Assembly: GCA_036679645.1 (NCBI GenBank)
Contig: JAZDCY010000011.1
Span: 85,152 to 149,151, forward strand
Direction: 5' to 3'
Source of the DNA: Gemmatimonadota bacterium
GTDB taxonomy: Bacteria; Gemmatimonadota; Gemmatimonadetes; Gemmatimonadales; GWC2-71-9
Length of the DNA stretch: 64,000 nucleotides
The notes beneath the pieces are model-generated. The model worked only from the letters and a program-made list of their open reading frames with translations. It ran no database searches and was not told the origin of the DNA. Shown here piece by piece: positions 11,448 to 28,600 of this stretch (positions are counted from its first letter, which is position 1; each line of letters begins with the position of its first letter). A program made the position numbers and the translations under genes.

Positions 11448-11520
<73 letters not shown>

Positions 11521-11689
11521 CTCTCTGAGCGCCGTTGTGACGGGGTTTTCGCGTTCCCTGCCCGCTGGACCAGATGTCGCGTGCGCCAATGCAGCCGGGT
11601 CCGCGACTCACGTCGCATGCCCGTTTCTTCCCACCTTCGCGGAGTGGGTCATGGCCTGTCCTTCCGCGTCAACCCCGGGTATGCTTCAT

Positions 11690-11785
11690 AGCAGCACCAA
11701 ACTTAGCGGGGACCTCTTTGCCCTCCGGCCAGCTCTGGCCGGAACGACGCCGGCGCCTCCTCTGAGCCACACTCTGAGGAGGGCC
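11690..11785 (+). promoter_or_regulatory. Structured 5' leader with RBS-sequestering hairpin
   Basis: CCGGCCAG/CTGGCCGG (11725-11742); CCTCCTC (11756-62) pairs with SD GAGGAGG (11776-82); TATGCT -10 at 11680. Confidence 0.55.
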
Positions 11786-12985
11786 GTGTCCAGCATCCCG
11801 CTCTCGCGGCCGTATTACGCGTCTTTCGCCCATCGCCACCCAACCGCCACCCAGGAATCAGCGCTCTCGGTACTGCCGCGAAGCGACAGTGAACGGGGAC
11901 CGATCGCGACCGCCATCGTCTATTGCGAAGCGAACTTCGGCGCCCTCGACGGGAAGACCGCCAACGGGCTCGTACGACATTCCGAGCTGTACGAGATCCT
12001 GTCGGTGATCGACAGCGAGAAAGCCGGGCTCGATGCGGGCACCGTGCTGGACGACGAGCCAAATGCCATCCCCATCCATCGCGACCTCGCCGAAGCCCTG
12101 GCCCACGTCGACGGGACACCCGACTACTTCATCTTCGGAATGGCACCGGCGAGTGGCATGTTATCGACCCACGAGCGCGGACTCGTACTCGAGGCCATGG
12201 CGCTCGGAATGAACATCGTGAACGGTCTGCATGAGTTCCTGAACGACGACCCGGAGTTCGCGGCGGCAAGCGTCGCGTGCAACGTGCAGGTCTTCGACAT
12301 CCGGAGGCCTCGCGCCAAGAAGGACCTGCGGATGTTCAGCGACCGCATCACCGAGGTGACCTGCCCCCGCATCGCCGTGCTCGGTACCGACTGCGCTATC
12401 GGCAAGCGGACGACCGCGAACATCCTCACCCTCGCCCTCAACGAAAGCGGCGTGAAAGCGGTCCTGGTCGGAACCGGACAAACCGGGCTGATCCAGGGCG
12501 CGCGTTACGGCGTGGCACTCGATGCGGTCCCGTCGCAGTTCTGCTCGGGTGAGATGGAAGCCACCATCGTCGAAGCGTTCGAGGGCGAGAACCCCGACGT
12601 GATCGTCATCGAAGGGCAAGGCGCGTTGAGTCACCCGGCCTTCTCGACCTCGAGCCTCATCATCCGGGGTAGTCGCCCGCACGGCGTCATTCTGCAGCAC
12701 GCGCCGGGGCGTGCCCATCGCTGCGACTTCCCGCAGATGGGGATGCCGACGCCGGACACTGAGATCCATCTCATCGAGACCTTCGCCGAAACGAAGGTCA
12801 TCGGTCTCACGCTCAACCACGAGAACATGACCGAGGCCGAGGTGACCGCGGCCATCGTTCGGTACGAGTACGAACTCGGCATCCCCACAACGGACGCGCT
12901 GACCCGGTCACCCGACCGCCTCGTGGATATGGTCGTGTCGATGTTCCCCGAGCTCGAGGAGAAACTGACCGCCGGCGCACGATGA
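11786..12985 (+). CDS. DUF1611 family P-loop protein (DgcN-like)
   Basis: GKTANGLVRHS, IVNGLHEFL, GTDCAIGKRTT, GTGQTG, IEGQGALSHP; GTG start after GAGGAGG. Confidence 0.85.
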   Translation: MSSIPLSRPYYASFAHRHPTATQESALSVLPRSDSERGPIATAIVYCEANFGALDGKTANGLVRHSELYEILSVIDSEKAGLDAGTVLDDEPNAIPIHRDLAEALAHVDGTPDYFIFGMAPASGMLSTHERGLVLEAMALGMNIVNGLHEFLNDDPEFAAASVACNVQVFDIRRPRAKKDLRMFSDRITEVTCPRIAVLGTDCAIGKRTTANILTLALNESGVKAVLVGTGQTGLIQGARYGVALDAVPSQFCSGEMEATIVEAFEGENPDVIVIEGQGALSHPAFSTSSLIIRGSRPHGVILQHAPGRAHRCDFPQMGMPTPDTEIHLIETFAETKVIGLTLNHENMTEAEVTAAIVRYEYELGIPTTDALTRSPDRLVDMVVSMFPELEEKLTAGAR

Positions 12986-14067
12986 CCGCACCGCGACTCG
13001 AGATTTTCCTCGATAGGATCCACCACAACGCCTGCACGCTGATCGAACGGCTTGGGGCACGCGGCATCTCGGTCACGGGCGTCACGAAGGCGACCCTGGG
13101 CTCACCCGAGATCGCCAGCGTCTTGCTCCGGGCGGGGGTCAACGCGCTCGGCGACTCGCGCATCGAGAACATCGAGGCCATGCGCGGCGCGGGCGTCCCG
13201 GGACCAATGATCCTGATTCGCTCACCAATGCTCAGTCAAGCCGACAAGGTCGTCACCCACGCCGACGTGAGCTTCAACACGGAACCCGCCGTCATCCGCG
13301 CGCTCTCGTCCGCCGCGCAGGCGGCGGGGCGCACGCACGGCATCGTGCTCATGGTCGAGTTGGGAGACCTCCGCGAAGGGATCATGTCCGGTGACCTCGA
13401 GCACGTCGTGCGCGAGACGCTTCACCTCCCGAACATTGCGCTCGAGGGGATCGGGACCAACCTCGCGTGCCACAGCGGCGTGGTGCCCGACAGCAGGAAC
13501 ATGGCGGAGCTGTCGGGGGTCGTCGATGCGATGGAGACGATCTTCGGTATCACGATCGGCATCGTCTCCGGGGGGGGCTCCGCCAACCTCTCGTGGGCGC
13601 TCAGCGGCGCCGACACGGGGCGGATCAACGATCTCCGCCTGGGCGAATCGATTCTGCTCGGTTGCGACCCGCTCGACCGCGAACCGATCGAGGGACTGCA
13701 CACCGATGCCATCATGCTCGTCGCCGAAGTGATCGAGTCGAAGGTCAAGCCGTCACGGCCGTGGGGCGACATCGCGCAAACCGCGTTTGGCGAACAGCCA
13801 CGCGCCGCGGATCGCGGGTCCATCTCGCGGTCGATCCTCGCTGTTGGGCGCCAAGACACCGACGCTTCGGGCCTCAGGGCCCCTCCCGGCATCGAGATCC
13901 TCGGGACCAGCAGCGACCACCTCATCGTGGATACCGGCCGCCATCGCCTATCGGTCGGCGCCGAGATGACGTTTCAGCTCAACTACAGCGCGCTGGTCCG
14001 CGCGATGACCTCGCCCTTCGTCGCGAAGATGGTTCTGAAGGCCGAGACCAGCCAGGTGCTGGTGTAG
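12982..14067 (+). CDS. Alanine/ornithine racemase family PLP enzyme
   Basis: GVTKA, GDSRIEN, MVELGDLREG, GTNLAC, SGGGSA, LRLGESILLG, SSDHL. Confidence 0.88.
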   Translation: MTAPRLEIFLDRIHHNACTLIERLGARGISVTGVTKATLGSPEIASVLLRAGVNALGDSRIENIEAMRGAGVPGPMILIRSPMLSQADKVVTHADVSFNTEPAVIRALSSAAQAAGRTHGIVLMVELGDLREGIMSGDLEHVVRETLHLPNIALEGIGTNLACHSGVVPDSRNMAELSGVVDAMETIFGITIGIVSGGGSANLSWALSGADTGRINDLRLGESILLGCDPLDREPIEGLHTDAIMLVAEVIESKVKPSRPWGDIAQTAFGEQPRAADRGSISRSILAVGRQDTDASGLRAPPGIEILGTSSDHLIVDTGRHRLSVGAEMTFQLNYSALVRAMTSPFVAKMVLKAETSQVLV

Positions 14068-14239
14068 GGCGCCCAACCCCGCGAATCCGTCATCCATGGC
14101 CGCTACCTCAGGCACTACCAACATCTTTCAGCGCCCACCAGGTCCGCGGCCTCGTTATCTGGGGAAGCAACTTCGACGAACTGGATGTCCCTCACATCGT
14201 GAGGTTCAGAGCCAGTGAGCGATGAGCCCATGAGCTGCG

Positions 14240-14280
14240 GACTGTCCCGCAATTGTCCCGGTACGGAGCGTCACTGAACG
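14240..14280 (+). repeat. 41-bp direct repeat, copy 1 (TGTCCC x2 at 11-bp spacing)
   Basis: 38/41 identical to 21080-21120. Confidence 0.85.
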
Positions 14281-14325
14281 CCTGTCCAGGTGGGACCCTT
14301 GGCAAGTTGCTGGCATCCGTCGCTC

Positions 14326-14347
14326 ATGTGTGTGAAATGTGTGTGAA
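14326..14347 (+). repeat. Perfect 11-bp tandem repeat ATGTGTGTGAA x2
   Basis: Read directly. Confidence 0.85.
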
Positions 14348-14522
14348 TGGGGATCACCCAGGGGTACTCTAGACGCGACGAGGCACTAGAACGGGCCTGT
14401 TTCTAGGTCGAGAGTGACCTAGCGTGTACTGGAGTTCAAGGCTTTACGTGGCCTACTGCCTCAATGATCCGCTGGGGATGGTCAACTCGCCCGGTGGCCT
14501 TTCGGCGTGGCTGGCGGAGGTA

Positions 14523-14678
14523 CTACAGGACTCCACGGATCTTCTTGAGATGTGACCGGACGAAGGGCTCGCTCACCTCGAACTGCTCGCCAAGGGCGTA
14601 AGTGTCGGAGAGCGAGGACTTCCGGAGGATGGGGCGCGGCAAGAGCAGCCCACCCGCAAAGACGAACGCTTGCCACTC
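14523..14678 (-). pseudogene. C-terminal fragment of ImmA/IrrE-family metallopeptidase
   Basis: EWQAFVFAGGLLLPRPIL...LGEQFEVSEPFVRSHLKKIRGVL*; no HExxH, in-frame stop just upstream. Confidence 0.6.
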
Positions 14679-14866
14679 TACGCTGACCGCTCCACCGCCA
14701 GGGGGTCAATAGGCCGGTCGCACATCCGGCACTGGGCAACGCCCGCATAGACACGATCGCGAACGGGTTTCAGGCACTTGCACGTCCGACGCGGGTCAGG
14801 CCGCCGCGCTTCACGCATTAGCCGATCGACCTGGTTGAGTATCTTCTCGCTGGTGATTGGTTTCAT
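14678..14866 (-). CDS. Small Cys-rich protein (CxC...CxxC), possibly mobile-element derived
   Basis: MKPITSEKILNQVDRLMREARR...CKC...CRMCDRP. Confidence 0.45.
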   Translation of the reverse strand: MKPITSEKILNQVDRLMREARRPDPRRTCKCLKPVRDRVYAGVAQCRMCDRPIDPLAVERSA

Positions 14867-14954
14867 CCCCAACACCTAATCTAGGGGCTGTGCGGCGGAG
14901 GCACGGCACATCAACTGACCGACGGGACACCGTCGTGTCAGCGCGAGGGTGGGG

Positions 14955-15119
14955 GAGCACCGCCGCGAGTTCGGGGCGCAGCACCTTGACTGCCACCTTG
15001 CGCTTGTGCTTCAGGTCTTCGGCGAGATAGACGATCGCCATCCCGCCCGAACCGAGTTCACGCTCGATGGTGTAGCGGTCGGCGAGGGCGGTGGTGAGGC
15101 GATCAATGTCGTTGCTCAT
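14955..15119 (-). pseudogene. Ser/Thr kinase N-terminal stub (55 codons)
   Basis: MSNDIDRLTTALADRYTIERELGSGGMAIVYLAEDLKHKRKVAVKVLRPELAAVL, then homology lost. Confidence 0.85.
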
Positions 15120-15161
15120 ACAATCGACGATTTGCGATTTGCGATCGAACGGCTCATTACC

Positions 15162-15216
15162 TCCCACACGTCGCTTTAGCGACATCAGCCGCGCCGCGAC
15201 TTTAGTCGCGACGACC
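15162..15216 (-). repeat. Twin-hairpin kinase leader element, copy 1
   Basis: GTCGC-TTTA-GCGAC and CGCGAC-TTTA-GTCGCG; 54/55 identical to 18037-18091. Confidence 0.9.
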
Positions 15217-15274
15217 CCGTGGCAGTATCTCCATACTGGTTCCCCACCTTAACTACTAGCACTCCGGCGCCGGC

Positions 15275-18001
15275 TCAGGGCGCCGCCATCCGCCGCTTCA
15301 GTTCCTCGACAAAATTGAAGACCACGACGACGTGTACAGCGGCGTCACTCTCCCCGCGGATCATCACGAACTCTTGGCCGTCCGGGGTGATGTCGTATTC
15401 ACGGGAAAACGGGTTCGAGGCGTATTGTGCGGCCGGGAAGAGCACACGTGGTGCGCCGGTCTGAAACGTCGTTCCGGCAGTGACCGGCACGGAGATCAGG
15501 TTGCTGGCGGCATCGAGGTAGAACAGCTCGCGCCCGTTGTGGCTCCAAGCCGGATTGATCCCCCCCGTAGTGGAGATTTGGTACTGCGCGCTGCCGGCGT
15601 CGGGGAATGGGCGAACGTACACTTCCCGCCGCCCCGACTCATTCGAACTGTATGCAATCCACCGCCCATCGAAAGACACCGCCGGCGAGAGCTCTTCGGC
15701 GGGCGTGGCGACGACTGCACGTGGCACGGTGTCCACTCCGGGCCTGATCGCCAGGATGTCCGCGTTGCCGGCCTCCTGATCGTCGGTCCGGAACACCATC
15801 CACGTCCCGTCCGGCGACCACGTGAGGCCACCGAGGCCGCGGTCATCGTAGAACTCGGTTTTGCTGAGGCTGCCCGACCCATCGGCCCTCACTTCGAACA
15901 GGTTCGAGCCCAGCGCGGCAGGGGTTTCTTCCCGATTGGAAAGGAACGTGATGGTGCCTGTACCGGGCCGCCAACTGGGGCGGTAGTTGGTACTCCCGTC
16001 GAACGTCAACCGCGACTTGGGGCTGCCGTCGAGCGATTCCACCCACAAATGACTCCGGCCATCGACGCCGGCCATGCTGACCACGAGGTGCAGCCCGTCC
16101 GGCGAGAGCGTTGGCTGCTGCACCGTGAAGTCGCGGAGATCCGCCGCGACGCGACGCGACTCCCCGTTCCGGTCCACCCACACGGCCTGAAATGACTGCA
16201 CCACGCCCTTGGCGTAGGCGAGCGTGCCGTCAGGCGAGAGCGAAAAGTCCGCCGTTCCCCCCGCCGTCACCGCCACGGTGTCCGACAACTCCACCTCCCG
16301 ACCGGACAGGCGCAGGGAACCTGCGTCGAATGGCGCCGCCCATAGCACCCCGTTCGCCTTCGCGAAGACGAGGTACCCGGCCGACGAATACTGGGCGCGT
16401 ATTCCCTGTAACAGGATCTCGATCTTTCCGGTGCTCAAATCCACGACGCCGATCGATGCGCGCTCGGGATCGGTCGCGTTGCGGGCAGGAATCACCGTGA
16501 GAACCGCCGCACGCGCGCCGGGAAGCACCTCGGGCCACAGGTACCGGAGATCGTCTCGCTCCGCGTCGAGCGTGGCGACCGTCTCCAGCGCCCCTCCACG
16601 TGGCGAGACACGGACGAGACCGGCGATCCCACTGACGTAAATCCAGCCATCCGTTCCCCAATCCAGTCCGCCTCCGTCGTCCGTCACGGACGTGAGGCCG
16701 GAGTCGGCGACAATGGCGGACAGCCCGCCGCCGAGCGGCACTACGTGCAGCGTATGGGGCCCGGTGAGGTACGCGACCGAATCGCCACTGGGCGAAAACG
16801 CCGCGCAACAGCCTTCATCGAGCGACTGCGGTAGCCTGGTGGCCTGCAGTTGGTCCCATTGCCGAAGCCAGTATTGGGTCCTGGTGCCGACCCCCGGTCC
16901 GGAGTACAGCAGGCCGGCTCCGTCCGGCGCGAGGGTTAGGATAGGGCCGGGACCCGCCGTGTACCGCGGCCGCTGGTTGGCGAGCATATCCAGCATGAGT
17001 CGCATCGTTGGAGGCGGTGTGGTGTGTTCTCGCCAGGCCAGTTTCGTCGTCACGACGCCCAGGATGAGTGCCGCAACTGCGACAATGGCCACGGCGCGCA
17101 GCCCGAGTGCACGTAATGGCTGAATCGCGCCTCTTGCCTGGCTGACGGCGCGGGTGTCCGATGCGTATGACGGATTCGCAAGCGCGTCCGCAAAGGCTTT
17201 GGCACTCGCGAACCGATCCGCCGGTAGTTTCTCCAGCGCTTTCGCCACTGCTGCCGCCACGTGCGGCGACACCGATTTCCGCACCTTCGTGACGGGCTGT
17301 GCCTCCTCGGTTACGATCTTCATGATGATCTGCTGGGCCGACGAGCCCACGTGCGGCGGGCTTCCCGCCAGCATCTCGTAGAGCACGCTACCCAGCGAAT
17401 AGATGTCGGAGCGATTCGTGAGGTCCTTCTCCGCGGTCGCCTGCTCGGGACTCATGTAGTGCGGCGTGCCGAGCGAGAGGCCCGTCTCGGTCATGCGTCC
17501 ACCCGCTGCCGCGCTCACCGCCAACGCAATGCCGAAGTCCGCCACCATCGGACGGCCATCGTGGAGCAGGATATTCTCGGGCTTGATGTCCCGATGGATA
17601 ACGTTGTTGCGATGTGCGTAGTCGAGCGCGTCAGCGATGTCGGTTGTGATCTTCACCGCCTCATCGATGGAGAGTTGCGTTTCGCGGTTCAGCTTGTCGC
17701 GCAGGGTCTCGCCCTCGATGTACGGCATGACGTAGTACAGGAAGCCGTCCGTCTCTCCGGAATCGAACAGCGGCAGGATGTGCGGATGTTGGAGATTGGC
17801 GGTGGTCGTGATCTCCTGCAGGAAGCGTTCGGCACCGAGCACGGCTGCGAGTTCAGGGCGCAGTACTTTGACCGCGACCATGCGCTTGTGTTTGAGGTCT
17901 TCGGCGAGATAGACGGTCGCCATGCCACCCGCACCGAGTTCGCGTTCGATCCGGTAACGGTCGGCGAGAGCAGTGGAGAGGCGATCTACGTCGTTGCTCA
18001 T
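15275..18001 (-). CDS. Ser/Thr protein kinase with TM and PD40/TolB-like beta-propeller
   Basis: HRDIKPEN, DFGIA, GTPHYMSPEQ; TM; repeated SPDG/WSPDG motifs. Confidence 0.95.
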   Translation of the reverse strand: MSNDVDRLSTALADRYRIERELGAGGMATVYLAEDLKHKRMVAVKVLRPELAAVLGAERFLQEITTTANLQHPHILPLFDSGETDGFLYYVMPYIEGETLRDKLNRETQLSIDEAVKITTDIADALDYAHRNNVIHRDIKPENILLHDGRPMVADFGIALAVSAAAGGRMTETGLSLGTPHYMSPEQATAEKDLTNRSDIYSLGSVLYEMLAGSPPHVGSSAQQIIMKIVTEEAQPVTKVRKSVSPHVAAAVAKALEKLPADRFASAKAFADALANPSYASDTRAVSQARGAIQPLRALGLRAVAIVAVAALILGVVTTKLAWREHTTPPPTMRLMLDMLANQRPRYTAGPGPILTLAPDGAGLLYSGPGVGTRTQYWLRQWDQLQATRLPQSLDEGCCAAFSPSGDSVAYLTGPHTLHVVPLGGGLSAIVADSGLTSVTDDGGGLDWGTDGWIYVSGIAGLVRVSPRGGALETVATLDAERDDLRYLWPEVLPGARAAVLTVIPARNATDPERASIGVVDLSTGKIEILLQGIRAQYSSAGYLVFAKANGVLWAAPFDAGSLRLSGREVELSDTVAVTAGGTADFSLSPDGTLAYAKGVVQSFQAVWVDRNGESRRVAADLRDFTVQQPTLSPDGLHLVVSMAGVDGRSHLWVESLDGSPKSRLTFDGSTNYRPSWRPGTGTITFLSNREETPAALGSNLFEVRADGSGSLSKTEFYDDRGLGGLTWSPDGTWMVFRTDDQEAGNADILAIRPGVDTVPRAVVATPAEELSPAVSFDGRWIAYSSNESGRREVYVRPFPDAGSAQYQISTTGGINPAWSHNGRELFYLDAASNLISVPVTAGTTFQTGAPRVLFPAAQYASNPFSREYDITPDGQEFVMIRGESDAAVHVVVVFNFVEELKRRMAAP

Positions 18002-18036
18002 ACGATCGACGGTTGGCGATCGAACGACTCGTTACA

Positions 18037-18091
18037 TCCCACACGTCGCTTTAGCGACATCAGCCGAGCCGCGACTTTAGTCGCGACGACC
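18037..18091 (-). repeat. Twin-hairpin kinase leader element, copy 2
   Basis: Near-identical to 15162-15216. Confidence 0.9.
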
Positions 18092-18177
18092 GTAGCCATA
18101 CCACCCGCACCGAGTTCACCTTCGATTCGGTAGCTGTCGGCCAGTGCTACGGTAAGGCGGTTGAGGTCGTCGGCCAT
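18088..18177 (-). pseudogene. Ser/Thr kinase N-terminal stub (30 codons) fused to the hairpin element
   Basis: MADDLNRLTVALADSYRIEGELGAGGMATV; frame continues through element to TGA 17998-18000 overlapping the kinase ATG. Confidence 0.8.
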
Positions 18178-18356
18178 CGCGTTGGTATTCCCTGCAGAGA
18201 GAGGGCCAAAGATGGGCCTCAGTGGACGGGGTGGCTAGCTGGTGATTGTCGCGGAGTTGCTCCGGTGGGGCGACACTGAGCGGCGATGCTCGGCGGCATG
18301 AAGCCGTCTGCCGACGATAAATCGGCCGCCGGATGACAACGTTGCCCGCGAGACTC

Positions 18357-18414
18357 TTGACACCGCCTCCGCACCGGTATATTACCATACTAGCACACCA
18401 GTACACTAATACAC
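18357..18414 (+). promoter_or_regulatory. Sigma70 promoter and probable GntR/YtrA operator
   Basis: TTGACA 18357, AT-rich -10 region, repeats TAGCACAC-CAGTACAC-TAATACAC. Confidence 0.6.
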
Positions 18415-18429
18415 TCTGCGAGGAGGCGT

Positions 18430-18840
18430 GTGCTGATCACTATCGATGAAACAGATCCGCGGCCGATCTACCAGCAGATCGCGGATGAGGTTCGGCGCGG
18501 GCTGGTGGTCGGGACCCTGCGTGCCGAGGATGCGTTGCCGTCGGTGCGGCAGTTGGCGGCAGAGCTGCGGGTGAATCCGAACACAGTGCAGCAGGCATAT
18601 CGCGAACTGGAGCGGGAGGGACTGGTGCACGTTCGGCGCGGGAAGGGGACATACGTGGCGGAGATGCGTGATGGTGGTAGGGCGCGGGAGCGGAGCACGC
18701 TGGCGCGGTCGGTGGCGCAGCGGGCGTTGCGGGAGGCCCACCGGAACGGGCTGAGTGCGGAGGAGTTGGTCGAGGCGATTCGGCGCGCTGCGAGTGGCGG
18801 CGCGCCGGCGGCAACGAGCGCGGAAGGAGCAAACGCATGA
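18430..18840 (+). CDS. GntR family regulator (YtrA subfamily)
   Basis: PIYQQI, LPSVRQLAAELRVNPNTVQQAYRELEREG, RRGKGTYV. Confidence 0.92.
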   Translation: MLITIDETDPRPIYQQIADEVRRGLVVGTLRAEDALPSVRQLAAELRVNPNTVQQAYRELEREGLVHVRRGKGTYVAEMRDGGRARERSTLARSVAQRALREAHRNGLSAEELVEAIRRAASGGAPAATSAEGANA

Positions 18841-19838
18841 TGGACAAGCTGCCGACGGAACTGACCACAACCGGTCCGCTGGCCGTGACGACGCGGTCGC
18901 TGGTGAAGCGGTTCGGCCGCACGACAGCGCTGGCGGGCTTGGACCTGGCGGTGCCGGAGGGTTCCGTCTACGTGCTGGTCGGGCGGAACGGGGTGGGGAA
19001 GACGACCACGATCAATGTGCTCCTGGACCTGGTGGTCGCGGATTCGGGCACGGCGGAGGTGTTCGGATTGGACACGCGCGCCGAGGGGGCCCGCGTGCGT
19101 GCGCAGGTGGGGTATGTCCCGGAGCGGCACGAAGTGGCGTACGGCTGGATGCGGGTGGGCGCGCTGATGCGCTACCATGCCGGCTACTATCCGGCGTGGG
19201 ACGCGGCGTATGCCGACGAGTTGTCGCGACTGTTCGACATCCGCGCGGACATCAAGTTCGGCAGGCTCTCGAAAGGCCAGAAGCGCCGAGTGCAACTGCT
19301 GCTCGCCCTCGCGCATCGGCCACCGCTGCTCGTGATGGACGAGCCAACCGACGGGCTCGACCCCGTGATGCGGGAGGAGGCGCTCTCGGCCCTCGCGGCT
19401 CATCTGGCGCGCTTCCCGACGACGATTCTGGTCTCGACCCATCAGGTGCACGAGATAGAGCGACTGGGGGACCATCTCGGGCTCGTGCGCGCCGGTCGGA
19501 TCGAGGCGCAATTCAGCCGCGACACGTTGCGCCGCTACCTGCACAGCTACCGCCTCGAGGTACCGGACGGGTGGGCGGGCGTGTCGGCGATGGAGGATGT
19601 GGTGATCCGCCGGAACGGGTCGGGTCGAGAGATTGCGTGGACGATCTGGGGCAATGAGGCGGAGGTGACGGAGCGACTTGGGGGCGCGGGGGCAACGGTC
19701 CGGCAGGTCGAGCCGCTGACGTTGGAGGACGCGGCGTTGTCGCTCCTGACACAGCGCGCGACGTCGAACGGGGCCGATGGGAGTGAGATACTTCAAACGA
19801 TACCGGCCGGCGTCGGACCGGCGCATGGAGGAGAGTGA
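18837..19838 (+). CDS. ABC transporter ATP-binding protein
   Basis: GRNGVGKTT, LSKGQ, MDEPTDGLDP, STH. Confidence 0.93.
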   Translation: MMDKLPTELTTTGPLAVTTRSLVKRFGRTTALAGLDLAVPEGSVYVLVGRNGVGKTTTINVLLDLVVADSGTAEVFGLDTRAEGARVRAQVGYVPERHEVAYGWMRVGALMRYHAGYYPAWDAAYADELSRLFDIRADIKFGRLSKGQKRRVQLLLALAHRPPLLVMDEPTDGLDPVMREEALSALAAHLARFPTTILVSTHQVHEIERLGDHLGLVRAGRIEAQFSRDTLRRYLHSYRLEVPDGWAGVSAMEDVVIRRNGSGREIAWTIWGNEAEVTERLGGAGATVRQVEPLTLEDAALSLLTQRATSNGADGSEILQTIPAGVGPAHGGE

Positions 19839-20644
19839 GCATGCGTGCGAATGTTGCGGTGCGCGAGCTGCGGCCGACCCCCGGGATCGGGGTCTCGTTC
19901 CGCCAACAGGCGTGGCTCCTCGGTATGAGTGGCCGCTGGATCCTTCAGATCCTGGGTCTTCTGGCGTTACTGATGCTGATCGGCTTGAGCGACGTCCCCC
20001 GCGAGGCGCCGCGGATCCTCATCACTTCGATGCTCGCAATACTGGGCGGCACGACCTGGGCCGTGATGGTGTGGCACGGAGAGGGGCCGGACCGCCGGTC
20101 GTATCACTGGTCGCTCCCGGTCCCGAGACCGGCCCATGACCTGGCCCGGGTGGCCCTGGGTGCGGCGTACCTGCTCGCCATCTGCGCGGTGCTGGCCGGC
20201 GCCGGCGCGATTGCGGCATCCGCGAACGGCACGTTCGATCGTTTCGCGGCGACCGCGCCGGAGGCGTGGGCGAACTTCTTCGTGGCGCCGCTGATCGTCT
20301 ACCTGTTGGTGACACCCGTGGTGCTCTGGAGCGACTACCCTATCACCCGCTGGGTGTTCGCGATCTACTTAGGTGGGGGGCTGCTTGCCGCGATCCTCAG
20401 CTGGCAGGGGTTCGACCTGCTGGTAGAGGGCCTCGAAAAGATCTTCGATGCAGAGAACTGGGGGCTCGCGGCCGCGCTGTTCGCCGGGATCCAGCATGAG
20501 GTGAGCGCGTCCATGGGGCTGCCCCCCCTCGTCGACCTGTGGTGGACCGGCGCGGTGCTGTGGTTCGGGCTGGGCCTCGCGCTCACGGTATTCACCGCGC
20601 TTTACCGACCGGACGATCTGCGACGATTGGTGCGCCGCGCGTAG
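19835..20644 (+). CDS. ABC-2 type membrane protein
   Basis: About 6 TM helices; SLPVPR loop; coupled to ATPase gene. Confidence 0.7.
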   Translation: MSMRANVAVRELRPTPGIGVSFRQQAWLLGMSGRWILQILGLLALLMLIGLSDVPREAPRILITSMLAILGGTTWAVMVWHGEGPDRRSYHWSLPVPRPAHDLARVALGAAYLLAICAVLAGAGAIAASANGTFDRFAATAPEAWANFFVAPLIVYLLVTPVVLWSDYPITRWVFAIYLGGGLLAAILSWQGFDLLVEGLEKIFDAENWGLAAALFAGIQHEVSASMGLPPLVDLWWTGAVLWFGLGLALTVFTALYRPDDLRRLVRRA

Positions 20645-20703
20645 GCAAGTTCTCCACCAGACCAGGTGCCACGAGTCGTTGAGGGCTCAGCCCCGCTCTG
20701 TCG

Positions 20704-21015
20704 GCGTAGCGACTCGCCCTCCACGAACGGCATCACGTAGTAGAGGAATCCGTCGGCTTCGCCCGAGTCGTACAGGGGTAGGATGTGCGGATGGCTGAGC
20801 TGGGCCGCGATCTCGATCTCGCGAACGAACCGCTCCGAGCCGAGGGCCACAGCCAACTCCTGCCGCAGCACCTTGACGGCCACCTTGCGGCGGTGCTTTA
20901 CGTCCTCCGCCAGGTAGACGGTGGCCATCCCGCCGCGCCCGCTGCCGACCTCACGCTCAATGGCGTAGCGGTCCGCGAGGGCTGTAGTGAGGCGATTCAG
21001 AGGGTCGTCGGCCAC
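20704..21015 (-). pseudogene. Ser/Thr kinase N-lobe stub (~104 codons)
   Basis: ADDPLNRLTTALADRYAIEREVGSGRGGMATV...HPHILPLYDSGEADGFLYYVMPFVEGESLR, ends before HRD. Confidence 0.88.
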
Positions 21016-21079
21016 CGCTTGATACTCCTGCAGCGAGTGGGCCCAAGATGGGTGACCCGGCGCCGCGTCGCTGGCGGGT

Positions 21080-21120
21080 GACTGCCCCGGAATTGTCCCG
21101 GTACGGAGCGTCACTGAGCG
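21080..21120 (+). repeat. 41-bp direct repeat, copy 2
   Basis: Matches 14240-14280; followed by partial tandem GTACGCAGCGTCAC. Confidence 0.85.
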
Positions 21121-21177
21121 GTACGCAGCGTCACATCCTCCCGCCACCTGCACTTGGAAGTGTGGCGGCGTCTGTAA

Positions 21178-21570
21178 CTACTTGAGTCGCACGAGATGAT
21201 CCCGAATCCACCGGGCGACGTCTCCCTCTGACGCCTCGCCCGCAGCAACCGCGCTGACGATGGCGACTACCTCTGGCTCCTCGACGGCGAGGCCGTGGCC
21301 GTTCAAGCCGAGGAAGATCACGGTTGCGAGAAAGGCAATCCGCTTGTTGCCATCCCGAAAGGGATGGTTCTTCGCGAGCCCGTAGAGATAAGCCGATGCA
21401 AGAGAGGCAATGTCTGGTCGCCGCTTGTACGTCCATTTGTGCTGCGGCCGCGCGAGCGCGGACTCGAGGAGACCTTCATCGCGCAGGCCGGCCAGACCGC
21501 CGTGCTCGCGGATCTGGTCGAGATGCACGGCCTCGAGGACAAGGCGCGGCACCCAGCGCGGCTCTCTCAT
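21178..21570 (-). CDS. doc: Death-on-curing (Doc/Fic) toxin
   Basis: GLRDEGLLESALARP, NHPFRDGNKR. Confidence 0.93.
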   Translation of the reverse strand: MREPRWVPRLVLEAVHLDQIREHGGLAGLRDEGLLESALARPQHKWTYKRRPDIASLASAYLYGLAKNHPFRDGNKRIAFLATVIFLGLNGHGLAVEEPEVVAIVSAVAAGEASEGDVARWIRDHLVRLK

Positions 21571-21576
21571 GCGGCA

Positions 21577-21804
21577 CTATTGCGCCAGTTCGCGCAGCGC
21601 GTTCCGATAGCGCTTGGCGGCGTCCGCCGCGACCGCCAGGGCCTCCTGGGTGAGCGGATCGTAGGGCGTCAACAGGATGCCCTCCGCCGTCTCGACGGCG
21701 AGGAGGCTATCACCGGGCTCGAGGCGGAGCCGATCGGCCATGTCTTTGGGGAGGGTGGTACCGACCGAGCCGCCGACCCGTCGCACTTTGACTCGTTTGA
21801 CCAT
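21577..21804 (-). CDS. AbrB/MazE-fold antitoxin
   Basis: KVRRVGGSVGTTLPK...GILLTPYDP...YRNALRELA; upstream palindrome TAAGT-NNN-ACTTA. Confidence 0.88.
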   Translation of the reverse strand: MVKRVKVRRVGGSVGTTLPKDMADRLRLEPGDSLLAVETAEGILLTPYDPLTQEALAVAADAAKRYRNALRELAQ

Positions 21805-21941
21805 GTCAAAAGTATAATATAAGTGCTACTTACAGACAACGACGTCTAGCCACAGCAAACGGCGGGAGCGGATCGAGTCCCTCGGCTGTTCGCGAAAGCA
21901 TAGGCGGGAGTGCCGTTGCTGGTAGCCGGCGCACTGTCGCT

Positions 21942-24900
21942 TCAGCGCCCCCGCGCCAGCTCTTCTAGTGCCAGCCGCGCCGACGTGACCTGATCGCGCA
22001 GTTCCGGGTCGGGATTCGACCAGAGATCGAGGAATTGCCGGTAATACTCGATGGCCGCTTCCGTGTCACCGCGAGCCTCCGCCAGCTCGGCCAAGCGGCG
22101 CAACGCGAACGGCAACTGCACTCGCGCGAAGCCCCATGAACCCGACTCGGAGGTGAGGCTGGCGTGAACAGCCAACTCGAAGTGAGCAACAGCCGAGTCC
22201 GGCTCCGCGAGCTCATCGAACGCCAGCCCGTACATGAGATGAGCGTGCGTTAGCCATCCGTCTAGCACGTAGCCCAGGCCATCTATTTCGCGTAACGCCG
22301 CAACCGCACCGTCCGAATCACGTTGGGCCAACGACCGGGCGGCACGGGCCATTGCCTCAGCATATTGAACCGTCCACGGAGCTGCACCTGACGGCTCCGG
22401 ATACGTCTCCCCGAACCGCTCCAGGAGGTCGGCATGTCCGAGCAGCCCAGCACCGACACCCAGGGTCGTCCGGTAGACCACCCGCTCGAATCCAGTGACG
22501 GAATCAGCCGCAAAGCGGTCGAGCGCGGCCTCGAGTCGCGCGCGCGCCGCCGTCGGCCGCCCCCTCATCTCCTCGGCCAGAGCGACGCCGAGCACCACGT
22601 TCGAATAGTCGAGGTACCGGCGCTGCTCGCCGTAGTACCGTCCCGCAGCCTCCATGCGACCGATGGCTTGGCTCACGCGGCCATGGGTAGCGGAAAGCGA
22701 CCCGCAAAAGCTGCGGGCGTCGGCGAGGCCCGCGGGACTGCCGGCCTCCCCCAGCACCGAGTCACACAGCGCATCCGCTCGATCGTAGTCTCCCGACCCG
22801 ACGGCGTAAGCGCGGGACCAACGTGCGGCTGGATCCGCGAATCCCCGTGCCCTGGCGGCGGCGATGAGGCTGTCGGCTGCAGCCCACCGTCCCAGGTCAA
22901 TGGCCGTGTAGATCGCGTTGCTGTACCTCAATAGGCTATTGGGATCGAGGGTGAGAGCCTTTAGGTAGGTCACATACGCTCGCTCCGTCTCGCCCAGATA
23001 AATGATCGCAACGGCCAAGTTGTTTACCGCACGGGAATCGTCCGGGTACTGGGCAAGGAGGGCATCGTACACGTCGACGGCACGGTGAATCTCGTACCGT
23101 TGATAGTGATAGGTGCCCTCGACATGCATCCGCTCCCGATCCGTCAAGCGATCGCGCCGCTCGTAGGCCCGCTGCGCGTACTCCCTACCCTGGGCGCGGC
23201 GTTCCGAATTGCCAAACGCCACGCCGGCAAGCCGATAAGCCATGGCGAAGCTGGTATCGAGGCGCGTCGCGGCCACGGCGAGTTCTGCCGCCCGGGGGTA
23301 GTCAGCGTCGATCTCCAGAGCTGCCTTCGCCAAGGCGTACCTGCGAAGCGCTTCCATTGATGTTGTGGTCACTTCAGGAAGCGGACGACTCTGCCGAATC
23401 GCAGCGGATGCCTCCCCCAACCGACTTCTCAGCTCGCGCGAAAGCGCCTCCACACCCTCCAGCAAGCGCTCGGCCCGGGCAGCCGTCCGCACCGCGATCA
23501 GCTCCCGGCCGGTACCCGGCTGGATGACGCGAGCGCTGAACACATAGTCATCGCCCAGGCGCGCGACCGCCGGCACGAGCACCGCCGCCATCCCTTCCCG
23601 CTGCGCGATCTCCAACGCGACAGTCTCATCCAGCTTCGTGGTGTCGGGAAGCCCCATTCGCCGCAAGACGGGGACGATCTGGTTGCGGCCCCGGACATTG
23701 ACGTACCGCGATTGCTGGAGATCAACGCTCAAGGCGGTTTGCGCGGCGAGAGCGATCTCTTTTTCGCTCTCCGGGGCAACGAACTCCGCCAAGACGATCC
23801 AAGCTCGCTCCCCGAATGCCTCGCCCGCCGACCCATGGGCCTCCGTCACCCGCGCAGAGCCGCGCACCACGATGAGCGTGCTCATCATGCCCAGGACGGC
23901 GAACGCCAGCGCGCCGCCCATGATCGCCCGCGGCCAGGTCAGCTGCCGGACGATCGGTTTCCCGGTTCGCTCCGGAGCGGGCCGCGGCTGGCGCGCCTCT
24001 TCGCGCACGAACGCGGTGGCCAGTACGACGGGAAAACCGAGCAGCAGCAATATGAGCGCCGCCGCGTAGACCCACTCGGGCAGCAGGTAGCGCGCGACGA
24101 TCTGGTCGGCAACCGCCAGCACAGCCCAGGAGGCGACCACGTAGATGGTGAGAGCGATCATCACGGCGCGTGCGCGGCTGCCGCGGAGCTTCACTGTTGT
24201 TGGGGTCGCTGTAGCCACAACCGCCGCCGACTCGCGCCTCGCCAACGCCTCAGCAAACTGTCCAACCGGGCTGAAGCGGTCCGCCGGCGTCTTCGCGAGC
24301 GCACGCGCCACTGCCGCAACTACGTCGGCGGGCACTGCAGGTCTCAGATTCGTGATCGCGGGGGCCTCAACCGCCACGTGCTGCTGGATGACGCTCTCCA
24401 CCGTCGGGCCCGTGAACGGCGGCTGCCCCGCGAGCATCTCGAAGAACACGCAGCCCAGCGCGTAGAGATCGCTTCTGCCATCGAGGTCACCACTCCCCAC
24501 CGCCTGCTCGGGACTCATGTAGCTCGGCGTCCCGATCGCGAGCCCGGTCTCTGTCAACCGGTCACCACCCGCGGCGCTGATCGCTCGCGCAATGCCAAAG
24601 TCCGCTACGACCGCGTGCCCGCTCTCCAGCAGGATATTCTCCGGCTTGATGTCGCGATGCAGCACGTCGTGGCTGTGTGCGTAGGAAAGCGCGTCCGCGA
24701 CTTCGCGTGCGATCTGCACCGCGTCGTCGATGGGGAGTTGCTTTTCACGATCGAGCCGGTCTCGCAGTGTCTCGCCTTCCACGAACGGCATGACGTAGAA
24801 CAGGAAACCGTCGGCCTCGCCCGAATCGAGCAACGGCAGGATGTGCGGGTGGGTGAGACGGGCGGTGATCTTGATCTCGCGCAGGAATCGTTCGGGGCCG

Positions 24901-25064
24901 AGCGCGTGGGCGAGATCGGGCTTCAGCACCTTGAGCGCGACGTGACGCTCGTGCTTCACGTCTTCGGCCAGGTAGACGGTGGCCATGCCGCCCGCACCGA
25001 GTTCGCGTTCGATCCGGTAACGGTCGGCGAGAGCAGTGGTGAGGCGATCGACGTCGTTGCTCAT
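21942..25064 (-). CDS. Ser/Thr protein kinase with membrane segment and TPR C-terminus
   Basis: HRDIKPEN, DFGIA, GTPSYMSPEQ; about 3 TM helices; TPR region ending YYRQFLDLW. Confidence 0.93.
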   Translation of the reverse strand: MSNDVDRLTTALADRYRIERELGAGGMATVYLAEDVKHERHVALKVLKPDLAHALGPERFLREIKITARLTHPHILPLLDSGEADGFLFYVMPFVEGETLRDRLDREKQLPIDDAVQIAREVADALSYAHSHDVLHRDIKPENILLESGHAVVADFGIARAISAAGGDRLTETGLAIGTPSYMSPEQAVGSGDLDGRSDLYALGCVFFEMLAGQPPFTGPTVESVIQQHVAVEAPAITNLRPAVPADVVAAVARALAKTPADRFSPVGQFAEALARRESAAVVATATPTTVKLRGSRARAVMIALTIYVVASWAVLAVADQIVARYLLPEWVYAAALILLLLGFPVVLATAFVREEARQPRPAPERTGKPIVRQLTWPRAIMGGALAFAVLGMMSTLIVVRGSARVTEAHGSAGEAFGERAWIVLAEFVAPESEKEIALAAQTALSVDLQQSRYVNVRGRNQIVPVLRRMGLPDTTKLDETVALEIAQREGMAAVLVPAVARLGDDYVFSARVIQPGTGRELIAVRTAARAERLLEGVEALSRELRSRLGEASAAIRQSRPLPEVTTTSMEALRRYALAKAALEIDADYPRAAELAVAATRLDTSFAMAYRLAGVAFGNSERRAQGREYAQRAYERRDRLTDRERMHVEGTYHYQRYEIHRAVDVYDALLAQYPDDSRAVNNLAVAIIYLGETERAYVTYLKALTLDPNSLLRYSNAIYTAIDLGRWAAADSLIAAARARGFADPAARWSRAYAVGSGDYDRADALCDSVLGEAGSPAGLADARSFCGSLSATHGRVSQAIGRMEAAGRYYGEQRRYLDYSNVVLGVALAEEMRGRPTAARARLEAALDRFAADSVTGFERVVYRTTLGVGAGLLGHADLLERFGETYPEPSGAAPWTVQYAEAMARAARSLAQRDSDGAVAALREIDGLGYVLDGWLTHAHLMYGLAFDELAEPDSAVAHFELAVHASLTSESGSWGFARVQLPFALRRLAELAEARGDTEAAIEYYRQFLDLWSNPDPELRDQVTSARLALEELARGR

Positions 25065-25065
25065 A

Positions 25066-25105
25066 CCACACGTCGCTTTAGCGACATCAGCCGAGCCGCG
25101 ACTTT
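25066..25105 (-). repeat. Twin-hairpin kinase leader element, copy 3 (truncated)
   Basis: CCACACGTCGCTTTAGCGACATCAGCCGAGCCGCGACTTT; cut in the loop of one hairpin. Confidence 0.88.
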
Positions 25106-25155
25106 CGGTAGCGGTCGGCCAGTGCTGCGGTCAGGCGATTGAGGTCGTCGGCCAT
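25105..25155 (-). pseudogene. Ser/Thr kinase N-terminal stub (17 codons)
   Basis: MADDLNRLTAALADRYR with same upstream leader as 18177 and 21015. Confidence 0.75.
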
Positions 25156-25325
25156 CGCTGCGTATTCCCTGCTGCGAGTGGGCCTAACATGGGCGCCCCG
25201 GCTCCGCGTGGCTAGGCGGGCGACTGTCCCAACGAGCCGCAGCCTTCAGCGTCGGAGCCGCTTCTGGCACACCGGCTGCGCGGATTTGATCACGTCGCCA
25301 GGCCGAGCGTACGTTACGTTGGGAC

Positions 25326-25613
25326 ATGCCCGTGACCGCGAAGCTGTCCCGCGAATTCTACGACCGCTTTGGCGACAAGGTCGTCGACGAGCTGGTGGGG
25401 TTGCTCAACGACATGGACGCAACGTTCCGGGCCGAGTCGCGGGAATTGAACGATCAGAACGTCCGGCGTTTCGAGGCCCGGCTCGAGCAGCACGCGGCAG
25501 AGTTGCGTGTGGAGCTGGCGGCGCTCAAGGCTGAGCTGATCAAGTGGATGTTCCTGTTCTGGCTGGGCACGGTCGCCACCATGCTTGGGATCGGGCAGTT
25601 GCTGATCGGCTAA
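25326..25613 (+). CDS. DUF1640/CCDC90-like coiled-coil protein with C-terminal TM
   Basis: Coiled coil then LKAELIKWMFLFW. Confidence 0.75.
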   Translation: MPVTAKLSREFYDRFGDKVVDELVGLLNDMDATFRAESRELNDQNVRRFEARLEQHAAELRVELAALKAELIKWMFLFWLGTVATMLGIGQLLIG

Positions 25614-25676
25614 CGGATACGGTCAGCAATGAGCGGTGTCGTCTCGTCAGGCATCCTCAACATCGCGAGCAATGGT

Positions 25677-26069
25677 CTACCACCTAGAGACCGCTACGTC
25701 GGTCTGTGAGAAATCGTCACCTACGAAGAGTAGGGGCTCATCGCGGGCCACCGACAGCGCATAGCTGAAGCAGTCTCCGAAATTCAACCCCGCCGGGTGT
25801 CGTCCGCGACCGAACCGCAAAGCTGCGTCGCGGGCGAGGTACGCCTGCTCCTCGCCGACGGGGACCACTTCGGCGCCGATTCCGCGCAGTAGGCGGTCGA
25901 GTTGCGGTTCGCCGGCCTCGCCAAAGCGTCCCAGGAGAACGAGTGCGGCCTCGACCACGGTCGCCGCCGACACGAGTCTGGTCGCGTCGGCTTCAACGGC
26001 CGCCACGAGCCGACCCGCAGTGGGCTCGCGAGTGAGGATCCCTATGAGGGCCGACGTGTCGATGACCAT
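25677..26069 (-). CDS. vapC: VapC PIN-domain toxin
   Basis: MVIDTSAL, FGRGRHPAGLNFGDCFSYAL, LLFVGDDFSQTD. Confidence 0.93.
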   Translation of the reverse strand: MVIDTSALIGILTREPTAGRLVAAVEADATRLVSAATVVEAALVLLGRFGEAGEPQLDRLLRGIGAEVVPVGEEQAYLARDAALRFGRGRHPAGLNFGDCFSYALSVARDEPLLFVGDDFSQTDVAVSRW

Positions 26070-26072
26070 GAG

Positions 26073-26324
26073 TCAGCGCGGGAGACCGTGGTCGTCGTAG
26101 TCGAGGATCTGCTCGGCGGATCGTGCATCCAGCACGGGAAGCCGAGCGAGTCGCTCCTGGACCCGCCGGATTTCGGCTCCGACGCGCCCGCGGGACAGCC
26201 GGGTTTCACGTTCGAGACGCTCGCGTAGTGCCATGCGAATCGCCTCAGTCAGCGATTCGCCGGTGGCTGCGGCGAGCGCTCGGGCGAGGCGGTCCGTCTC
26301 GGGGTCTTTGATGCTTAGTGCCAT
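26073..26324 (-). CDS. vapB: VapB antitoxin (Rv0623-like)
   Basis: [29 protein letters not shown]...[10 protein letters not shown]. Confidence 0.9.
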
Positions 26325-26425
26325 TTCTAGTCTTCTATATGAATATCTATAAATCTAGACTACTTGAGTACGGCGCGCAAGGAGGAGGGAACCAAGGAGG
26401 CAAGAGGGAACGTGTTCTCTCATGA

Positions 26426-26723
26426 GCGGTCACCCGCAGTGAACGGGTCTACCAACCCATCGCGATCTGGTCACCCGACGGCAGCCGGCTGGCGGTCGTG
26501 GACTACGACTACCCGACGGACAGTTACGACTTGCAGCTGGTCACGTGGCCGGGGGGGGGGGGGGGAATGGCGTCAGCTCACGGAGACGCCAGACGCCATC
26601 GAGTTAGGCCCGGTCTGGACGCCGGACGGTACGCAGATTGTCTACACATACCAAACGACAACCGCCCGGATCATCTCCGTTTCGCTGGCGGAGCTGTTGG
26701 CGGAGACTGGAGACGAGGAATAG
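26426..26723 (+). pseudogene. Orphan C-terminal PD40 beta-propeller fragment, frameshifted at G15
   Basis: IWSPDGSRLAVVD...LVTWP / EWRQLTETPDAIELGPVWTPDGTQIVY in two frames either side of 26551-26565. Confidence 0.7.
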
Positions 26724-26735
26724 GCCGGCCGGCGG

Positions 26736-26900: not shown

Positions 26901-26920
26901 GCCAGCCCTTTCCTTTCTAT

Positions 26921-28600
26921 CTATTCGCGATTCCAGCCCGTCCAGCCGGGGCCGCGCACCACACGGCCCGGCAACGCTCCCGTGTGCTCCTCGTCGCGCA
27001 GGACGATCTCGCCGTTCACTACGACGTGCTGGACGCCCGTCGCCAACTGGTGCGGTTCCGCGAACGTCGCGTGATCCGCGATCGTCGCGGGGTCGAACAC
27101 CACTACGTCCGCAAAGTATCCCGGTTCCAATCGTCCGCGCTGCCGAATCCGTAGGTTCTCGGCGGGCAGCGAAGTGAGACGTCGGATCGCTTCGCCGAGG
27201 GGAGTCACCCCCTCCTCGCGCACGTACCTGCCGAGCAGCCGCGCGAAATTGCCATAGGCCCGGGGATGTGGGTTCGAGCGCAAGAAGACGCCCTCCGGCG
27301 CCGGGGAGCCCGCGTCCGAACCGAAACTCACCCACGGCAACGCTATCTGGCGCCGGATATTCTCCTCAGACATCAGGAAATACACCGTCCCGACTCGACT
27401 GTCATCCTGCACCACGAGATCCATCGCCGTCTCTTCAACGGACGTGCCGCGCATCTCGGACACTTCGGCGAGTGTCTTACCCGTCAGGTACTTGAGTGAA
27501 TCCTGCCTGAAGGCGACGAGCAATACGTTTTCCGGCGTGCCCGCCGCGAGCAGGAGGTTTTCCCACTCGTCGGTAGGTGTCCGCATCTCTCGCGCGATGC
27601 GCGCACGGATGTCCGGGTCGCGTAGCCGCTCCTCCCATGCGTCCTGTCCGCCCTCTTGCACCCACGGTGGCATGGCCGCGTCGAGACCCGTGGCGCCCGC
27701 GGGGTAGTTGTACATGTCCGCTGTAATACGGAGACCGTTGGCGCGCGCCGTTTCTACGCGCTCAATCACCTGCTCCATCTTGGGCCAGTTCTCCCGGCCT
27801 CCGGCCTTGAGGTGGTAGATCTCCGCCGGGACGTTCCCGTCGCGCGCGATGGTAATGAGCTCCTCGACCGCCTCCAGTAGCCGGTTTCCTTCGCTCCGCA
27901 TGTGCGAGATGTACATACCGCCATACTCGGCGGCGACCTTGTTGAGTTCGATCAATTCATCGGTCTCGGCGTAAAAGGCCGGCGCGTAGATGAGCGACGA
28001 TCCGATGCCGAGGGCTCCTTCTTCCATACCCTGGCGCACGAGCGCGCGCATCCCGTCCAACTCGTCGGCTGTCGGGGGCCGATCGTCGTAGCCGATCTCG
28101 TGAATGCGCAGCGTGGTCGCGCCCAGGAACGACGCGATGTTGGGCGAGATGCCCCGCTCCACGAGATGGTCCAGGTACTCGCCCAACGTGGTCCAGGGAA
28201 TGTCGAACGTGATGTCGCCCTGTTGTTCGATTTCCTCGGCCCGCATCGCGTCCGTGAGCGGTCCCATCGACCAGCCCTCTCCAAAGACCTCCAGCGTCAC
28301 GCCCTGGCGAATATCGCTGAGCGAGCGCCCGTCCTCGATCAGGCTCACGGTAGCCCAACTGAGCATGTTGATGAAACCGGGCGAGACGGCGAGCCCCGCC
28401 GCGTCCATCACCACGGCCGCCGACGCGTCGGCAAAATCGCCGATACCCGCAATCGTGTCGCCGCTGATGGCCACGTCGGCCGGATACGGGTCCCCACCGG
28501 ACCCGTCGTACACGGTCCCTCCGCGGATGATGATGTCGTAATCAGGGGTGCATGCCGTGGCTGCGAGAGCCAGGCACAGCGCCCTAGCGCATCGGTGCAT
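26921..28600 (-). CDS. N-acyl-D-amino-acid deacylase family lipoprotein
   Basis: IIRGGTVYDGSG, SPGFINM, SHMRSEG, GSDA, HPRAYGNF, ADVVVFDP. Confidence 0.9.
   Translation of the reverse strand: MHRCARALCLALAATACTPDYDIIIRGGTVYDGSGGDPYPADVAISGDTIAGIGDFADASAAVVMDAAGLAVSPGFINMLSWATVSLIEDGRSLSDIRQGVTLEVFGEGWSMGPLTDAMRAEEIEQQGDITFDIPWTTLGEYLDHLVERGISPNIASFLGATTLRIHEIGYDDRPPTADELDGMRALVRQGMEEGALGIGSSLIYAPAFYAETDELIELNKVAAEYGGMYISHMRSEGNRLLEAVEELITIARDGNVPAEIYHLKAGGRENWPKMEQVIERVETARANGLRITADMYNYPAGATGLDAAMPPWVQEGGQDAWEERLRDPDIRARIAREMRTPTDEWENLLLAAGTPENVLLVAFRQDSLKYLTGKTLAEVSEMRGTSVEETAMDLVVQDDSRVGTVYFLMSEENIRRQIALPWVSFGSDAGSPAPEGVFLRSNPHPRAYGNFARLLGRYVREEGVTPLGEAIRRLTSLPAENLRIRQRGRLEPGYFADVVVFDPATIADHATFAEPHQLATGVQHVVVNGEIVLRDEEHTGALPGRVVRGPGWTGWNRE

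Follow-up and report, generated by a model that had tools for sequence, protein, structure and literature searches.

A variable tRNA-Phe island with kinase starts, kinase stubs and toxin–antitoxin genes in a Gemmatimonadota genome

How does a bacterial chromosome come to carry a row of six starts of one Ser/Thr kinase family, only two of which lead into an intact gene? The question is raised by a 64,000-nt stretch from a Gemmatimonadota bacterium (GenBank assembly GCA_036679645.1, contig JAZDCY010000011.1, positions 85,152 to 149,151), here called the window, which forms the end of contig C4 of a draft genome, G000, of 4.05 Mb and 92.7% completeness. The six starts are co-oriented, as the initial annotation of this sequence had it, and all lie on the minus strand: stub S1 at 15119, kinase K1 at 18001, S2 at 18177, S3 at 21015 (a GTG), K2 at 25064 and S4 at 25155. 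In our judgment the locus is, on balance, probably a variable island at tRNA-Phe that arose from repeated units of a leader plus a kinase start and was shaped by recombination among paralogues and by deletion, with no integron behind it. What is new here is the comparison of one site in three states and an order-wide link of VapBC toxin–antitoxin (TA) genes with kinase heads; no publication on this kinase expansion was found in the open-access literature, taken without supplements, so that its absence from print is not shown.

The island at tRNA-Phe

The frame of the island is formed by the following features:
11448..11521, plus strand: tRNA-Phe (anticodon GAA), whose 3' end anchors the island; the site is empty in G002 and has an attachment-site (att) duplicate in G001
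11537..14067, plus strand: DUF1611 protein and alanine-racemase-N protein, island cargo; the start of the first open reading frame (ORF) is uncertain
26921..28600, minus strand: amidohydrolase, the conserved far flank of the island

The tRNA is the only Rfam match in the window. In the congener G002 about 380 nt separate it from the amidohydrolase, i.e., the site is empty; in the congener G001 the same gap contains a peptidase, one intact kinase-TPR gene of 804 aa with its leader and, besides these, a tandem repeat as well as 42 nt duplicated from the 3' half of the tRNA; and in G000 the insert amounts to 15 kb. Thus, the locus is a tRNA-Phe accessory island that varies among relatives across three states (empty, one kinase, 15 kb), and the initial annotation, which had pictured a locus that gains and swaps kinase modules, was right in that the arrangement is not static. 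The comparison with G003 was uninformative, a different neighbour lying beside its tRNA-Phe. Among the cargo, the racemase-like gene has a match in 2 of 201 genomes, G000 itself included.

With its position at the 3' end of a tRNA and its absence from a relative, the island resembles the cis-mobilizable elements (CIMEs) that arise by accretion at tRNA 3' ends, insofar as the accessible text of PMC5704250 describes them: it is likewise an integrase-less element with an att duplicate (in G001), tandem decayed units and an empty site in a relative. It differs from them in that its units begin with a promoter and a kinase start, in that there are no att cores between the G000 units, and in that it has no transfer genes. 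The direct repeat of the tRNA-Phe 3' part at the far end measures 42 nt in G001, whereas none was found in G000. A plausible beginning would be a tyrosine-integrase-type event that placed a one-kinase element at tRNA-Phe, a state that G001 would still show.

Kinases, stubs and the repeated unit

The row of kinase starts was compared with k=31 contigs of a public sequencing run, X2, which hold 98% of the sampled words and may represent the source reads of the assembly; another run, X1, gave thin, partly diverged pieces and was left out. The row and its associated elements are as follows:
15275..18001, minus strand: K1, intact Ser/Thr kinase of 908 aa with a Pkinase domain, one transmembrane (TM) segment and a PD40 propeller sensor
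21942..25064, minus strand: K2, intact kinase of 1040 aa with a Pkinase domain, three TM segments and a TPR sensor; head 96% identical to that of K1, body of another subfamily
14955..15119, minus strand: stub S1, 55 codons, break at 14955, 85% nt identity to the K1 start; break within one X2 contig
18088..18177, minus strand: stub S2, 30 codons; bridged in X2
20704..21015, minus strand: stub S3, 104 codons from a GTG start; corresponds to the kinase-TPR gene of 804 aa that is intact at this site in G001; bridged in X2
25105..25155, minus strand: stub S4, 17 codons in the window and about 28 in X2
15162..15216, minus strand: REP-like double hairpin (REP, repetitive extragenic palindromic), copy 1, with TAAA loops and 7-nt repeats just below it, at about 15127-15145
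18038..18091, minus strand: copy 2 of the REP-like double hairpin, joined directly to the break of S2
25066..25105, minus strand: copy 3 of the REP-like hairpin, truncated in the window and complete in X2
14240..14280, no strand assigned: island-end module, copy 1, a tandem repeat of 11-nt period without a kinase; a candidate arm site
18178..18285, minus strand: S2 leader with a putative -10 box (promoter suggested by conserved spacing) and a diverged island-end repeat
21016..21137, minus strand: S3 leader and island-end repeat; the G001 counterpart lies about 100 nt from the 42-nt duplicate of the tRNA-Phe 3' half
25156..25232, minus strand: S4 leader and part of the island-end module

The two intact kinases end in different C-terminal sensors, as first described. 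Their catalytic motifs (catalytic loop, DFG) are intact, and with their kinase-TM-sensor layout both are Hanks-type receptor Ser/Thr kinases, with propeller or TPR sensors (PknB/PknD type). They stand apart from ordinary members of that class in belonging to a family that numbers about 90 starts in a single genome and forms arrays together with stubs and TA genes. PADLOC matches to PD-T4-6 and Mad6 were rejected as signs of defence, since they cover only the generic kinase domain.

A sign of recombination is the mosaic of K1 and K2, whose nucleotide identity is 96% over codons 1–30 and 70% over the body, while the closest relative of each body lies on another contig (83% and 81%). In 47 of 48 genes the sensor is at most 50% identical to that of the nearest kinase-domain partner. 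S3 with its leader matches the G001 kinase gene at 76% nt identity over 433 nt. Both intact genes of the window follow the same layout of stub, hairpin and kinase, and this likeness, already seen in the initial annotation, is closer than was then described, since S4 in X2 is longer and its hairpin complete.

Could the stubs be chimeras that an assembler made from near-identical kinase starts? This is very improbable. Single X2 contigs bridge the breaks of S1, S2 and S3 at a flat depth of about 102–114, with no mismatches on the long pieces, so that the lengths first reported for these three (55, 30 and 104 codons) stand; moreover, an orthologue of the S3 leader exists in G001, and stubs recur in other genomes. 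The 17 codons reported for S4 did not hold up: its X2 contig departs from the window at 25104, going on with 14 letters that stay in the kinase frame and are also present in the heads of K1 and K2, and a 91-nt X2 contig joins the longer S4 head to the complete hairpin. Counted from the contigs, S4 in X2 extends to about 28 codons, so that about 49 nt are missing from the window, a difference that reflects either an assembly slip or a variant. This junction of the window, unsupported by X2, is what speaks for chimeras, yet S4 is a stub in X2 too. The order of the K1 and K2 units rests on the window assembly, because the 40-nt hairpin common to both is beyond the phasing reach of contigs made at k=31, a circumstance that again lends the chimera explanation some room.

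Four homologous copies of the island-end module, which like the tRNA-Phe anchor had escaped the initial annotation, occur in the window, three in the leaders of S2, S3 and S4 and a bare one at 14240; a strong match was found in only one of 120 other genomes of the family, namely G001. Two integrase genes of G000 end in similar tandem repeats of 11–12 nt beside tRNAs, and others of this kind lie ahead of kinase starts where tRNA-Pro and tRNA-Lys are located in the genome. Presumably such tandem repeats are integrase arm sites, a regulator site being the alternative. A second arm-like tandem repeat at 14283-14350 of the window resembles, by eye, the sequence upstream of a stub at C53:58067 beside tRNA-Leu, and runs of 7-nt repeats lie upstream of kinase starts at 15127-15145 and in many kinase leaders. 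At C6:94164-112295 an array of the same design as the window stands at 3' fragments of tRNA-Pro and contains a different island-end repeat in three copies, along with HigBA and AbiEii-type pairs. Six genes that resemble a tRNA-Leu with its long arm also occur (C7:211519, C11:12621, C32:56781, C47:754, C59:8760 and C7:130360); their anticodons are those of Ala or Val or are unreadable, and three of them lie 160–320 nt from kinase stubs. They may represent att hybrids, tRNAs used in recoding or a repeat of tRNA-like form.

The growth of the island from its one-kinase state may then be pictured as a repeated gain of a short unit made of island end, promoter and kinase start. Crossovers within the kinase start would have given one unit of leader, stub, hairpin and head two different bodies, those of K1 and K2, and the old bodies would have been lost through deletions or gains of cargo, with the stubs remaining. 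Ordinary recombination among kinase copies likely exchanges the two halves of these genes and gives small selfish genes a place to insert before kinases.

Stubs and toxin–antitoxin genes across the genome and the order

The window is not the only place where such stubs are found. G000 yields 121 kinase alignments and 93 starts of the core family; 27 stubs were chosen by hand, excluding C6:111989, C6:101687 and C8:61398 for internal deletions or the lack of a clear head. As 23 of the 27 lie outside the window, the mapping did away with the idea that this locus is special. By codon 70 the kinase has broken off in 23/27, with 15/27 ending at codons 21–30 (S4 counted as 28), although stub copies within one array are not independent. 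Arrays on contigs C6, C8 and C75 alternate kinase, stub, hairpin and TA-type cargo as in the window, and junctions of stub and hairpin are common to several units within an array (three on C8, two on C75, two in the window). One co-oriented array at C8:46880-85940 holds about 13 intact kinases with stubs and TA pairs, and a second, at C8:110307-122503, reaches the contig end. Among the relatives, 13 of 63 head matches in G001 and 2 of 36 in G002 are in short frames, one in each genome at a contig end. Kinase heads of 30–41 codons are also seen fused in frame to unrelated exported proteins, for which they apparently provide the start (L066:1373-3142 in G002; L196:13511-15199 in G152).

The genes between and beside the units of the window are these:
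21178..21804, minus strand: Doc toxin (21178-21570, Fic/Doc family) and AbrB/MazE-type antitoxin (21577-21804)
25677..26324, minus strand: VapC toxin (PIN domain, 25677-26069) and Rv0623-type antitoxin (26073-26324)
18430..20644, plus strand (inverted): GntR regulator, ABC ATPase and permease, in the place of the former S3 body
14678..14875, minus strand: ORF of 65 aa that follows stub S1 and has Cys motifs; no family assigned
26364..26723, plus strand, opposite to the kinases: orphan PD40 tail fragment
25326..25613, plus strand: CCDC90-like coiled-coil/TM gene of 95 aa, below the Pfam cut-off

All the cargo named in the initial annotation is there, VapBC lying outside the interval that it had drawn around the array. 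The two TA pairs are adjacent antitoxin and toxin genes whose sequences place them in known type II families. VapBC lies about 520 nt upstream of S4 and is not coupled to it, and no TA gene stands between the K1 and S1 units or between the flanking repeats of K1. A reading similar to the CCDC90-like gene is found, by eye, after another stub at C75:28776 (L016 near 2400-2700).

Across G000, a kinase start follows 10 of 26 PIN genes at a distance of less than 1 kb (null mean 0.38, maximum 3 in 1000), 26 of 77 hairpins with a TRAA loop lie within 300 nt of one (null 0.6), and tRNA calls do so within 400 nt in 6 of 51 cases (null 0.5); these enrichments are inflated, because the null was uniform while accessory DNA clusters. 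Order-wide, a survey of 200 genomes gave 27 loci of relatives of the window VapC. A kinase head is present in 9 of them, in 7 on the same strand and starting 14–75 nt after the toxin, and one of these 7 also has a stub before the TA pair. These loci with heads comprise three families in differing neighbourhoods, with layouts of stub-VapBC-head (L118), stub-VapBC (L102) and VapBC-stub-cargo (L103, L114). Among the controls, kinase heads accompany neither Uma2 (0/29) nor relatives of the window ABC ATPase (0/29), and amidohydrolase relatives do so in 1 of 11 loci. The earlier observation of TA modules beside kinase starts therefore extends to a strong upstream enrichment in the genome and, for this VapC type, to the order. 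The five closest named relatives of the window VapC are consistent with Gemmatimonadota. TA modules whose 3' end carries a kinase start may be inserted at kinase starts and would persist since their loss is toxic. At C52:969-7067 three PIN genes accompany an integrase and tRNA-Ser on a contig that has no kinase.

The same facts may be read as plain debris: tandem kinase duplicates would decay by deletion, their starts being kept since the promoter serves the next gene, TA and REP elements would pile up passively, and heads would play no part in the gain of cargo. We regard this as rather doubtful, though a good deal agrees with it. Internal deletions and head-tail fusions do exist (C63, C6:111989, C9:136148), the S3 body was lost next to the Doc module, conservation does not single out the heads, the cargo that follows G001 stubs is mixed, and, in the accessible part of PMC13617665, Photorhabdus chromosomal TA systems do not conserve their neighbourhoods. 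What it accommodates poorly are the head-body mosaic of K1 and K2, the junctions that recur with differing cargo inside arrays, and the tight co-oriented spacing of VapC and head in three families, with nothing of the kind in the Uma2 and ABC controls.

Several further points weigh against an island grown by recombination at kinase starts. A duplicate of the tRNA core was sought in the window and none is left. For 14 of 43 genes the head finds its best match locally, as against 16 of 43 for the body, so heads are not as a rule homogenised locally, and conservation over codons 11–60 (0.74–0.78) equals that of several later kinase blocks (0.74–0.78); the heads as the most conserved block of kinase DNA were accordingly given up after the block comparison. 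Of the swapping at conserved 5' ends first proposed, the mosaic and the variable locus thus remain, and the special conservation does not. The 5' bias of the stubs therefore needs a further step, for which survivorship is a candidate: short stubs would outlast long ones, which may be lost by recombination with the next intact copy. Even so, the peak at 21–30 codons may be censored decay, because stubs below about 15–20 codons are undetectable. The X2 contigs show no rearranged subpopulation, though contigs hide rare forms. At 12 stub loci viewed in G001 the TRAA hairpin is found in 0/12, for which reason hairpins were rejected as general stub markers, and the cargo is mostly non-TA. Finally, Doc relatives stand beside kinase heads in just 2 of 29 loci, and a second VapC sample had a kinase head in 1 of 5 Gemmatimonadota loci and in 0 of 75 others.

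Cassette systems and a possible docking site

A site-specific system acting in trans would offer another route, in which a tyrosine integrase at the island-end repeats or a Y1 transposase at the hairpins inserts kinase and TA cassettes serially. Such a system is improbable. It would fit the att duplicate in G001, the nine integrase-family matches in G000 and the crowding of TRAA-loop hairpins near kinase starts, and its transposase variant has a concrete example: the window hairpin has about a dozen relatives in G000, and at C53:97180-97711 (L024), directly upstream of a kinase, two inverted copies flank a Y1 transposase (C53:97289). Multi-copy intergenic hairpins around a Y1 transposase are the mark of REP elements, and the short double hairpins in many copies, with an inverted pair about the transposase, are like REP/RAYT and REPIN systems (RAYT, REP-associated tyrosine transposase). 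They are unlike them in that the transposase is of the IS200/IS605 type (TnpA NF033573, 59 bits against a cut-off of 55, over a 112-aa part only) and not a RAYT (NF047646, 28 bits against a cut-off of 80). Against serial insertion stand the want of core duplicates between the window units, breaks that span codons 15–147 and have no sequence in common, i.e., no conserved crossover point, and the small share of stubs, about 7 of 27, that end at a hairpin.

The initial annotation had compared the locus with integron arrays and reported no recombinase gene in the window; the latter holds for all of contig C4, on which no match to tyrosine recombinases (PF00589), TIGR02249, Y1 transposases or resolvases was found, and resolvases are missing from the 92.7% complete G000 as a whole. 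The comparison itself fared less well. The best IntI-like match (C86:51824-52734) is on another contig, in two reading frames and below the TIGR02249 cut-off; a crude home-made scan found no attC-like site in 11500-27000, its control regions giving one weak match and none; there is no IntI or attI at the array; and the junctions are ragged. As far as PMC13108822 could be consulted, sedentary chromosomal integrons have TA cassettes that guard their arrays. The island is like them in its co-oriented, variable, TA-enriched array, the loss of which could be penalised, and unlike them in its repeated joint, which is the coding sequence of a paralogue family. A parallel may also be struck with polymorphic toxin loci, as depicted in the available portion of PMC3482391, with a constant 5' part, a highly variable 3' part, truncated copies nearby and recombinational exchange. 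Here, however, the leftovers are 5' heads instead of stored 3' cassettes (only one orphan PD40 tail is present, inverted), the variable part is a sensor and there are no immunity genes. The island behaves to some degree as integron arrays and polymorphic-toxin loci do, while belonging to neither class, and in the explanation that we prefer, that of a tRNA-Phe island reshaped by paralogue recombination and deletion, it seems fairly probable that no dedicated cassette recombinase is needed.

A bolder proposal, speculative and in our estimate unlikely, is that the starts of this kinase family in Gemmatimonadales act as a recombinase-free docking site. Cassettes ending in a kinase start, chiefly those of one VapBC type, would home into any one of dozens of kinase genes, where they would come under the promoter already present and turn the old start into a stub, and they would accumulate one upon another in an integron-like manner. 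The same crossovers would re-pair leaders, kinase domains and sensors, so that the repertoire of receptors is shuffled.

Should the island be only debris, it would still be a clear comparative case of island growth at a tRNA, and also a caution that kinase-rich regions of metagenome-assembled genomes can hold small junction errors. If docking were true, a large paralogue family would constitute a distributed gene-capture platform without a recombinase of its own, and TA modules would gain a homing route through coding-sequence homology. It would, moreover, account for the dozens of near-identical kinase domains with unrelated sensors in this little-studied phylum.

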